DNA from: a virus | Taxonomy: Duplodnaviria > Caudoviricetes | Length of the DNA: 64,000 nt | IMG/VR virus record: IMGVR_UViG_3300030098_005649 | Strand: one strand, 5' to 3' | In this document: piece after piece, positions 17,361 to 19,420 of the stretch | Layout: every line of letters starts with the position of its first letter | Numbering within the stretch: position 1 is the first letter of the stretch | The notes under the pieces: generated by a model | What the model saw: only the letters and a program-made list of their open reading frames with translations | The model's database searches: none | Told to the model about the DNA's origin: nothing | Translations under genes and position numbers: made by a program

Positions 17361-19370
17361 ATGAGTAAATTTCAGTTATCAGATAATTTTATAAATAAGT
17401 ACAAGAGGAAAAAAGCTCCTTTTGGTTTTAATGGATTAGGTGAGTTGGTTTATATGAGAACCTACTCAAGAATCAAGGACAATGGCAAAAACGAAAGATG
17501 GTGGGAAACAGTACAACGAGTTGTAGAGGGAACTTACAACATGCAAATGAATTGGATTGAATCACATCAATTAGGGTGGAATCCCTGGCAAGCACAGAGG
17601 TCAGCACAAGATATGTATGACCGTATTTTCAATATGAAGTTCTTACCGCCAGGTCGTGGTTTGTGGGCAATGGGAACACCAATCACAGAGGAAAAAGGAC
17701 TATATGCCGCCCTAAATAATTGTGCCTTTGTATCAACAAAAACAATAAAAGAAGACTATGCCAAACCTTTTTGTTTCCTTATGGATGCAAGTATGTTGGG
17801 TGTTGGTGTTGGGTTCGATACAAAAGGTGCTGGAGAGATAGTAGTCAAAGGTATAAACAAGGATAGAGATGTTCAGACATTTCAAATACCTGATACTCGT
17901 GAGGGTTGGGTTGAGTCACTAAAGTTACTATTAGAAAGTTACTTTCACGGACAGGCACCAATGGAGTTTGACTACTCAATAATAAGACCAGCTGGTGTAC
18001 CAATAAAAGGTTTTGGTGGAGTTAGTTCAGGACCAGAACCACTAAAAGAAGTACACGAAGATATAAGAAAAGTACTTGAAAAGAATAGTGGAGAACCAAT
18101 CTCAATCACTACAATTGTTGATATTATGAATCTTATCGGTAAATGTGTAGTGGCTGGTAATGTTAGAAGAACGGCTGAGATTGTATTTGGAGACCCACAT
18201 TCAGAAGAATATTTAGATTTGAAAAATTATAAAGTAAATCCACATAGAGAACAATATGGATGGACAAGTAATAACTCCATATTTGCAGAGTTGGGTATGG
18301 ATTATACAGAAGCTGCAAAAAGAATTGCAGACAATGGAGAACCAGGATTTGCTTGGTTAGAAAATATGAGACAATATTCTCGTATGAAAAATGGTGGAGA
18401 CAATAAAGACCATAGAGTAATGGGTGGTAATCCTTGTTTGGAACAATCATTAGAATCATACGAATTGTGTTGTTTGGTAGAAACATTTCCTGAAAATCAC
18501 GATGATTTTGAGGATTATGCGAGAACACTAAAATATGCATACTTGTATGCAAAAACAGTAACACTTGGTAGAACTCATTGGAGTGATACAAATCGAGTTA
18601 TGTTGAGAAATAGGAGAATCGGTTGTAGTGTAAGTGGTGTTGCTCAGTTTATAACAAATAGAGGTTTAGATGAACTGAAAGAATGGTTGAATGGTGGATT
18701 TGATGTTATCCAACAATGGGATAAACAATATTCAGATTGGATGGCAGTTCCACGATCTATCAAGACCACATCGGTCAAACCATCAGGAACAGTTTCATTA
18801 TTAGCAGGAGCGACTCCAGGATTACATTACCCTGAGAGTCGTTTTTACATTAGGAGAATAAGAGTTTCAAAACATTCGGAACTATTAGAACCTATGAAAA
18901 AAGCAGGTTACAAAGTAGAACCAGCATTTGGTTCAGAAGACACAACTATGGTTGTCGAAGTACCAGTAGATGTCGGTGAGGGGATTAGAACAGCGGCTGA
19001 ACTTTCGATTTGGGAACAATTCAGTTTAGCCGCTTTTCTTCAACGACATTGGGCAGACAACCAAGTAAGTTGTACGGTTACATTCAATCCAGAAACGGAG
19101 ACAGACCAAATTGCTCCGTGTTTGAATTATTATCAGTATCACCTAAAGGGTATTAGTTTATTACCAAGACACGATTATGGGGCTTATCCTCAAATGCCAT
19201 ATGAAGGTATTGATGAGAAAACCTATGAGAAAGAAGTAAAGAAATTAGGTAAACTATCCTTTGGTGTGATAAAGAATGAAGAGGCAGAAGTAGATAAATT
19301 TTGTAACAACGATAGTTGTGAAATCATTCCAACCACTGGTGATAATGATGACCAAGATTATGCAAATTAG
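17361..19370 (+). CDS. nrdJ: class II (adenosylcobalamin-dependent) ribonucleotide reductase, monomeric type
   Basis: PPGRGLW, ALNNCAF, GGNPCLEQSL, TSVKPSGTVS, C-terminal FCNNDSC cysteine pair. Confidence 0.95.
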   Translation: MSKFQLSDNFINKYKRKKAPFGFNGLGELVYMRTYSRIKDNGKNERWWETVQRVVEGTYNMQMNWIESHQLGWNPWQAQRSAQDMYDRIFNMKFLPPGRGLWAMGTPITEEKGLYAALNNCAFVSTKTIKEDYAKPFCFLMDASMLGVGVGFDTKGAGEIVVKGINKDRDVQTFQIPDTREGWVESLKLLLESYFHGQAPMEFDYSIIRPAGVPIKGFGGVSSGPEPLKEVHEDIRKVLEKNSGEPISITTIVDIMNLIGKCVVAGNVRRTAEIVFGDPHSEEYLDLKNYKVNPHREQYGWTSNNSIFAELGMDYTEAAKRIADNGEPGFAWLENMRQYSRMKNGGDNKDHRVMGGNPCLEQSLESYELCCLVETFPENHDDFEDYARTLKYAYLYAKTVTLGRTHWSDTNRVMLRNRRIGCSVSGVAQFITNRGLDELKEWLNGGFDVIQQWDKQYSDWMAVPRSIKTTSVKPSGTVSLLAGATPGLHYPESRFYIRRIRVSKHSELLEPMKKAGYKVEPAFGSEDTTMVVEVPVDVGEGIRTAAELSIWEQFSLAAFLQRHWADNQVSCTVTFNPETETDQIAPCLNYYQYHLKGISLLPRHDYGAYPQMPYEGIDEKTYEKEVKKLGKLSFGVIKNEEAEVDKFCNNDSCEIIPTTGDNDDQDYAN

Positions 19371-19386
19371 ACTTACAAAACAGCGG

Positions 19387-19420
19387 ACAGGCAGACGACA
19401 CACCTGTAAAAAAATGTGTC
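19387..19420 (+). promoter_or_regulatory. candidate H-type RNA pseudoknot in the TBDR leader
   Basis: S1 ACAGG(19387-91)/CCTGT(19403-07), S2 GACACA(19397-402)/TGTGTC(19415-20), A7 loop; RBS AGGAG at 19438-42. Confidence 0.6.

Follow-up and report, generated by a model that had tools for sequence, protein, structure and literature searches.

Comparative evidence for a compact H-type RNA pseudoknot in the TonB-dependent receptor leader of marine T4-like phages

A conserved pseudoknot in the receptor leader

The DNA analysed (the window) was a stretch of 64,000 nt from the IMG/VR virus record IMGVR_UViG_3300030098_005649 (Duplodnaviria; Caudoviricetes). Positions 19387−19420, in the mRNA leader of a TonB-dependent receptor (TBDR) gene, almost certainly form a real sense-strand RNA pseudoknot that is under selection. 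Based on the comparison with related phages, the element represents a new, compact RNA family whose structural kind is known and whose stems covary very strongly. It is held by selection in a group of related marine T4-like phages, where it accompanies the TBDR gene. An initial annotation, made from the letters of the window, had parsed this segment as two perfect interleaved stems of 5 and 6 bp with a 5-nt loop 1, a loop 2 of zero length and an A7 loop 3, lying 17 nt upstream of the ribosome-binding site (RBS). The parse proved exact to the base, and the RBS was confirmed as the Shine-Dalgarno (SD) sequence AGGAG. The parts of the locus are as follows:

19387−19391, + strand: 5' strand of stem 1 (ACAGG), partner strand 19403−19407
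19392−19396, + strand: loop 1 (CAGAC, consensus CAGNN), with CA invariant, followed by G in at least 90% of sequences and by two free positions
19397−19402, + strand: 5' strand of stem 2 (GACACA), partner strand 19415−19420, abutting the 3' strand of stem 1 (loop 2 of zero length)
19403−19407, + strand: 3' strand of stem 1 (CCTGT)
19408−19414, + strand: loop 3 (A7, consensus NNAAAAA), with the last five A invariant or nearly so and the first two positions variable
19415−19420, + strand: 3' strand of stem 2 (TGTGTC)
19421−19437, + strand: unstructured A-rich, G-poor spacer between pseudoknot and SD
19438−19442, + strand: SD (AGGAG) of the TBDR gene, 17 nt past the motif, kept in almost all leaders and always outside the pseudoknot
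19451, + strand: TBDR start codon (ATG)
19451−22204, + strand: TBDR gene, 917 aa, with the Pfam domains CarbopepD_reg_2, Plug and CarboxypepD_reg

Across the aligned leaders, the family form is a self-contained, classical H-type fold with a stem 1 of 4−5 bp, loop 1 CAGNN, a stem 2 of 6 bp, no loop 2 and loop 3 NNAAAAA. Loop 3, 7 nt long in the window, ranged from 4 to 9 nt in rare variants of the family.

Conservation and covariation

Homologues of the TBDR in IMG/VR were confirmed by tblastn at 80 loci with 75−99% identity, and the motif occurred once, at the same place, in 76 of the 76 TBDR loci with upstream sequence. An exact DNA-pattern scan of IMG/VR with the main form of the motif (AGGCA-N7-CACCT-N4-AAAAATG) returned at least 119 loci, at least 117 of them true leaders. 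In total, about 150 distinct leaders with the pseudoknot were obtained; every readable homologous phage TBDR leader was positive, and more than 160 related ocean phage contigs keep the pseudoknot.

For a set of 91 distinct sequences, 97.9% of the alignment cells were paired, and compensatory changes were present in five of the 11 pairs (53 cells). In none of 500 shuffles of this set did the covariation score, the paired cells or the doubly changed cells reach the observed values, and controls in which the pairing was slid along gave 18−62% paired cells. When 44 sequences picked for diversity and including a second subfamily were aligned, six of the 11 pairs covaried, three of five in stem 1 and three of six in stem 2. 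The check on covariation that the initial annotation had called for was therefore strongly positive. Over the alignments, paired cells amounted to 97.7−98.4% compared to 17−62% in the slid controls. Each of the two interleaved helices thus showed covariation, as expected of a classical H-type pseudoknot.

The compensatory changes in stem 1 were found in pairs 1−3 (A-U to G-C or C-G, C-G to U-A, and A-U to U-A, respectively), while pairs 4 and 5, both G-C, were invariant family-wide. In stem 2, pairs 1, 2 and 4 covaried (G-C/A-U, A-U/G-C/G-U and A-U/G-C, respectively) and pairs 3, 5 and 6 were invariant. The resulting consensus was 5'-(A)CAGG-CAGNN-GRCRCA-CCUG(U)-NNAAAAA-UGYGYC-3', with an ACUGG/CCAGU version of stem 1 in one subfamily. 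Of its 34 nt, 18 positions were invariant in the 91 sequences. These comprised the pairs adjacent to the junction (A-U, G-C and G-C of stem 1; A-U, C-G and C-G of stem 2), the CA of loop 1, usually followed by G, and the final five A of loop 3. Variation was seen in the junction-distal pairs of the two stems, in the last bases of loop 1 and in the first bases of loop 3. The GCGG adjoining stem 1 on its 5' side (19383−19386, + strand) was common, not universal; since other lineages have CCCGA, CAAAA, TTCTTA, TTTCCC and others there, it is, on this alignment, outside the core element.

The third pair of stem 1 was examined further in a 2×2 test, in which all four base combinations were queried as exact patterns in IMG/VR, with the following results:

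A..U: at least 119 matches, at least 117 true TBDR leaders
U..A: 57 matches, 47 true TBDR leaders
U..U mismatch: three matches, no true leader
A..A mismatch: six matches, no true leader

No leader with a mismatched third pair was therefore found in IMG/VR, all of the U..U and A..A matches being unrelated sequences.

A quick tree was built from 138 distinct TBDR 5' coding segments, excluding the leader. On it, the five clearly covarying pairs required at least 7, 4, 9, 19 and 15 changes, counts that recombination and the rapid method of tree building may have raised. The repeated changes of pair state indicate that the covariation signal does not stem from one inherited event. G-U pairs (GGCACA/UGUGUC and others) occurred only as read on the + strand, where the other strand would have C-A mismatches, which places the structure in the sense RNA.

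Single-sequence statistics and predicted stability

In the single sequence, the pseudoknot was not significant and was one among several equally good-looking candidates. Both strands were scanned for perfect 5-bp and 6-bp interleaved stems with loop 1 of 1−7 nt, loop 2 of 0−1 nt and loop 3 of 3−9 nt. The window had nine, and 200 simulated sequences of matching dinucleotide composition averaged 7.8. The nested minimum-free-energy fold of the locus was likewise no better than shuffles (z = 0.13). The pseudoknot was accepted as real because of the comparison with related phages, not on single-sequence statistics.

Taken singly, the stem hairpins had predicted energies of −4.4 and −4.7 kcal/mol, and the quasi-continuous 11-bp helix −18.3 kcal/mol. 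As ViennaRNA is unable to score pseudoknots, the comparison of −18.3 with about −4.5 kcal/mol per hairpin is a rough one, but it suggests that the knot should outcompete any nested fold.

Linkage to the TBDR gene

The gene upstream of the pseudoknot in the window encodes an adenosylcobalamin (B12)-dependent ribonucleoside-triphosphate reductase (RTPR), a ribonucleotide reductase (RNR). Three loci had Hsp20 or unknown ORFs upstream instead of the RNR, with the knot, spacer, SD and TBDR all kept. Judged from these gene orders, the pseudoknot belongs to the TBDR gene, and the RNR is its usual, not obligatory, neighbour. One lineage, represented by three loci (in L165 at 5119−5260), has lost the TBDR by deletion. 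There the RNR is followed by the leader, a short 5' stub of the gene (MKNRNLISLAVFV...) and then an unknown 483-aa ORF, and stem 2 carries an A-A mismatch.

The distance from the upstream stop codon to the knot varied from 5 to 39 nt, which excludes frameshifting, readthrough and any fixed coupling geometry. A −1 frameshift signal was specifically ruled out, as the element lies in an untranslated leader 5−39 nt past the stop codon, with no slippery site at a fixed distance and no conservation of the upstream sequence.

The window contained one copy, which scored 64 bits with the covariance model R1, the next best site scoring 12 bits. The nearest phage record also had one copy by pattern search. 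A blastn search of the RNR-TBDR region against the phage GenBank collection gave no match.

Comparison with host leaders

Homologues of the TBDR with 52−66% identity were present in many genomes of Marinimicrobia (SAR406), which indicates that the phage gene came from this host phylum. The host TBDR leaders that were examined were without the knot. A search of 156 Marinimicrobia genomes with R1 returned nothing convincing, the best hit (24 bits) lying in coding sequence, and no Rfam regulatory family was detected upstream of 19 host TBDR loci, where only tRNAs were matched.

A 17-base pattern scan of bacterial and archaeal genomes was also tried and discarded as too loose, about 118 of its 120 matches being due to chance, including a coding motif and an intergenic block of Pseudomonas. 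This block, conserved in many Pseudomonas genomes, consists of CGGACTTGCAGCCAAGGCATGGCGGGCACCTTTGAAAAAATG... followed by a GC-rich hairpin and GCGCAAGTTTACGC. The two true matches were phage contigs binned into metagenome-assembled genomes (MAGs). They carry the RNR-knot-TBDR module and lie in MAGs labelled as a Methanobacteriota archaeon (PBHZ01000014.1) and a Flavobacteriales bacterium (NZWA01000089.1), probably through binning error.

Upstream of the knot, at a distance of 1−23 nt, a TTCACATAC(C) box (TTCACATACC) was found in 84 of 153 distinct phage leaders, and also in some Marinimicrobia TBDR leaders. As the box is common to host and phage leaders, the phage apparently retained part of the host leader and inserted the knot. 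From its occurrence, the box may be a host-derived promoter-proximal or regulator site. It was degenerate in the window (19371−19379) and clear in L003, L084, L115, L117, L164 and others, as well as in two host loci (L323 and L324). It was inverted in L102 and L185, and in L117 and L164 a TGTGn-N6-TCACA dyad was seen, reminiscent of CRP/FNR sites.

The Marinimicrobia TBDR leaders had conserved blocks of their own about 100 nt before the start codon, GTGTGATGTCTGTCACAGTCATT in one group and AAACCCTCGGAAT in another (eight and ten loci, in the order given). Neither matched Rfam, and they may be host regulatory elements.

Spacer, ribosome-binding site and expression

In 125 distinct leaders, the distance from the knot to the SD was 11−27 nt and that to the AUG 19−39 nt, with a median of 28 nt. 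The spacers of these leaders consisted of 54% A, 24% U, 17% C and 4% G. UUAA(A/C) words were enriched, being present in 36 of 105 distinct spacers compared to 15 expected. The SD and start codon were neither inside the knot nor complementary to it. RNAalifold applied to 44 diverse leaders running into the coding region returned stem 2 as the sole conserved helix and none that involved the SD or AUG, and no conserved terminator or alternative helix was found in the leaders. An upstream ORF starting at an AUG inside the knot (the last A of loop 3 plus stem 2) was considered and rejected, as its frame was not fixed and its length varied. Short perfect palindromes (TTCATTAATGAA, TTCGTTAACGAA, TTCATATGAA) lay just past the knot in the spacers of L005, L015, L043, L066 and others; they were absent from the window and most loci.

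Marine metatranscriptome contigs from three studies covered the knot together with the 5' part of the TBDR, and some contigs of relatives matched at the knot only. Knot-containing RNA therefore exists in the sea. None of four metatranscriptome runs covered the 3' part of the RNR (18894−19316); since contigs cannot show transcript ends, no conclusion on the start or promoter was drawn from this. A promoter scan gave one weak sigma-70-like site at 19318−19346, no better than those in shuffles.

Neighbouring genes

The genes around the pseudoknot were all on the + strand, and the neighbourhood consisted of phage replication genes, namely those for a gp32 homologue, a 5'-3' exonuclease, a DnaB-like helicase, an N6/N4 methylase and PolB. 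The two neighbours that bear on the element are:

12824−13570: gene 32 (gp32 homologue, single-strand-binding protein; PF08804), 6 kb upstream
17361−19370, + strand: RTPR gene (TIGR02505, 373 bits), upstream of the pseudoknot

Four small ORFs (166, 125, 67 and 220 aa) lay between the TBDR and the methylase gene (22257−24080). None matched Pfam or NCBIfam, and one matched only a PHROG of unknown function.

Three features were common to the gene 32 leaders of the phage family (12700−12826 in the window, and about 110 nt before the start codon in loci L481−L560). They were a promoter-like TTGTATTT-N13-GATA(T/C)(A/T)TATTA, a hairpin around GGTTAC...GTAAC and, ahead of the SD, some 35 nt that are A/U-rich and G-poor. 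This leader looks like a gene-32-type autoregulatory leader, of a shape unlike that of T4.

Comparison with known RNA elements

No family was matched at gathering thresholds when the whole window was searched against Rfam 15. At the 141-nt locus 19340−19480, matches allowed up to E = 10 were chance ones (SNORD83, E = 2.7; rli36, E = 9). The element is therefore not preQ1-I, -II or -III, SAM-II, SAM-V, guanidine-III, NAD+-II, fluoride or any other catalogued motif, and the initial annotation was right in seeing no match to the classes it named. The preQ1-I covariance model (RF00522) in particular gave no match, and the ligand-pairing cytidine of its loop 2 is impossible here, loop 2 being of zero length. 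The text of a paper that lists over 10,000 structured RNAs of viruses (PMC10690425) makes no mention of TonB or RNR contexts; an unnamed entry there is possible. As noted in that paper, the knot of T4 gene 32 is not modelled in Rfam.

The likeness to preQ1-I and NAD+-II drawn in the initial annotation held for the topology and for nothing beyond it. In general terms, the element resembles preQ1-I (RF00522), SAM-II, SAM-V, guanidine-III and NAD+-II in its size of about 34 nt, H-type fold, 5-bp stem 1, A-rich loop 3 running along stem 1 and conservation centred on the junction. It differs from preQ1-I and other pseudoknot aptamers in the zero-length loop 2, the full 6-bp stem 2, the SD outside stem 2 and its confinement to one phage lineage. 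In known pseudoknot riboswitches, the SD is buried in stem 2 or a terminator competes with the knot, and no such sequestered or competing SD or terminator was found in the TBDR leaders.

In compact pseudoknots of solved structure, the deep groove of stem 2 is occupied by loop 1 and the shallow groove of stem 1 by an A-rich loop 3, both loops contributing base triples near the junction. The −1 frameshifting knots of luteovirids, such as that of beet western yellows virus, have a 5-bp stem 1 ending in G-C, a loop 1 starting with CA and a 7-nt A-rich loop 3, and are stabilised by a triplex. The TBDR knot is like these in stem 1, loop 1 and loop 3, and triplex stabilisation fits the conservation seen. 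As its invariant positions are the triple-forming positions of known compact pseudoknots, a knot reinforced by a triplex can be inferred. The pattern of conservation thus suggests that the fold is probably a stable, constitutively formed triplex-type knot and not a marginal, ligand-dependent one.

The closest likeness in layout was to the gene 32 operator of T4 and RB69, in which a 5' H-type pseudoknot is followed by an unstructured UUAAA/UAAA tract and the RBS (PMC535899, PMC3014915). In T4, a pseudoknot of about 28 nt is the nucleation site, and a tract of more than 40 nt, which carries the RBS, is cooperatively coated (PMC535899). The TBDR leader has the same arrangement, also in T4-like phages: a compact H-type knot at the 5' edge of the leader, not containing the SD, and then an unstructured A/U-rich tract running into the SD and AUG. 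Unlike in T4, the knot precedes a receptor gene and not gene 32. There is also no sequence similarity between the two.

Possible function of the pseudoknot

Three functions were considered for the element, and they were ranked as a translational operator recognised by a factor, then a constitutive stabiliser or insulator, and then a new riboswitch. At the head of this ranking, the operator is put forward tentatively, at less than even confidence, and by analogy. The stand-alone triplex-type pseudoknot would be the structured 5' module of a two-part operator, with the unstructured A-rich tract into the SD and AUG as the second part. Like gp32 on the leader of T4 gene 32, a trans-acting factor would recognise the knot and then occlude or expose the ribosome-binding region. 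Most plausibly, this factor would be a phage protein, the phage single-strand-binding protein being one candidate, and synthesis of the outer-membrane importer might in this way be tied to the state of the infection. In keeping with this proposal, the phage encodes its own gp32, and the leader of its gp32 gene also ends in a long A/U-rich tract. The initial annotation had suggested a novel ligand-sensing or protein-binding element; the conserved H-type RNA was borne out and its operator half suits the layout better, whereas the riboswitch half is weakened by the want of an SD or terminator platform and by the restriction to one phage lineage.

Several points weigh against the operator. The model rests on analogy in layout. 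The tract is shorter than in T4, with a median of 28 nt to the AUG compared to more than 40 nt, and A/U-rich, G-poor leaders may be the norm in an AT-rich phage. When a knot of the TBDR type was sought in the gene 32 leaders of the same phage family, the GGUUAC hairpin was found in its place, and with this different leader structure a shared gp32 site is not evident. Conservation focused on the junction would equally be expected of a small-molecule pocket. The possible inflation of the change counts on the tree belongs on the same side.

A constitutive protective or insulating element near the RNA 5' end appears unlikely, though it comes next in the ranking. Such an element would act against decay that depends on the 5' end, or against scanning by RNase E into the AU-rich spacer, and would insulate the RBS from the upstream cistron, with no ligand or protein. 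The fold is predicted to be stable by itself, its position relative to the SD is variable, as a barrier would allow, and the metatranscriptome contigs show knot-containing RNA, though not its 5' ends. The TTCACATAC(C) box upstream of the knot in phage and host leaders would also permit an mRNA 5' end just before the knot. What disfavours this explanation is that any stable hairpin should serve, yet the exact H-type topology and 18 of the 34 positions are fixed. The knot has remained so while the flanks and spacer were scrambled and the protein diverged to about 50−60% identity, and the host TBDR genes work without it. A riboswitch class born in phages is more doubtful again. It would consist of a 34-nt triplex aptamer whose junction binds a metabolite and which gates the host-derived outer-membrane importer without the classical SD-sequestering platform. 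The ligand might, for example, be a metabolite related to nucleotides or cofactors, with a bearing on the cargo of the receptor or on the neighbouring B12-dependent RNR, and its binding would alter how the TBDR mRNA is translated or how stable it is. Transporters are typically among the genes under riboswitch control, and the size, H-type topology, A-rich loop 3 and junction conservation resemble the preQ1-I, SAM-II/V and guanidine-III aptamers; the strong covariation and the want of a match to a known family would also fit. However, the leaders have no expression platform. An SD and AUG that are not in the knot or complementary to it, a spacing that varies by 20 nt and the absence of a conserved terminator or alternative helix all argue against a classical riboswitch layout. 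The element also has a single gene context in one phage lineage, not being found in the 156 genomes of the host phylum or upstream of host orthologues, and its two perfect, mutually reinforcing stems suggest that it folds free of ligand.

A feature of the DNA or of the opposite strand, either a protein-binding palindrome or a minus-strand intrinsic terminator (the ACAGG...CCTGT hairpin, then CCGCTGTTTT), is very improbable. A simple scan did list a terminator-like site on the minus strand at 19407−19387, but the neighbouring genes are all on the + strand and the T-run is not conserved in other loci. In addition, stem 2, which lies outside that hairpin, covaries most, and the G-U pairs would turn into C-A mismatches if read on the minus strand.

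Significance

Metabolic genes carried by phages are usually discussed as simply expressed. Here, a gene derived from SAR406 has acquired in the phage a compact RNA structure that is lacking from the host genes and has hardly changed throughout a very abundant group of ocean phages, which suggests that the nutrient importer is under dedicated post-transcriptional control during infection. With 34 nt and clean covariation, the element is unusually tractable for structure determination, for fishing of ligands or proteins and for reporter work. Binding of a metabolite would make it a new class of riboswitch; binding of a phage protein would extend operator control of the gene 32 type to an auxiliary metabolic gene.
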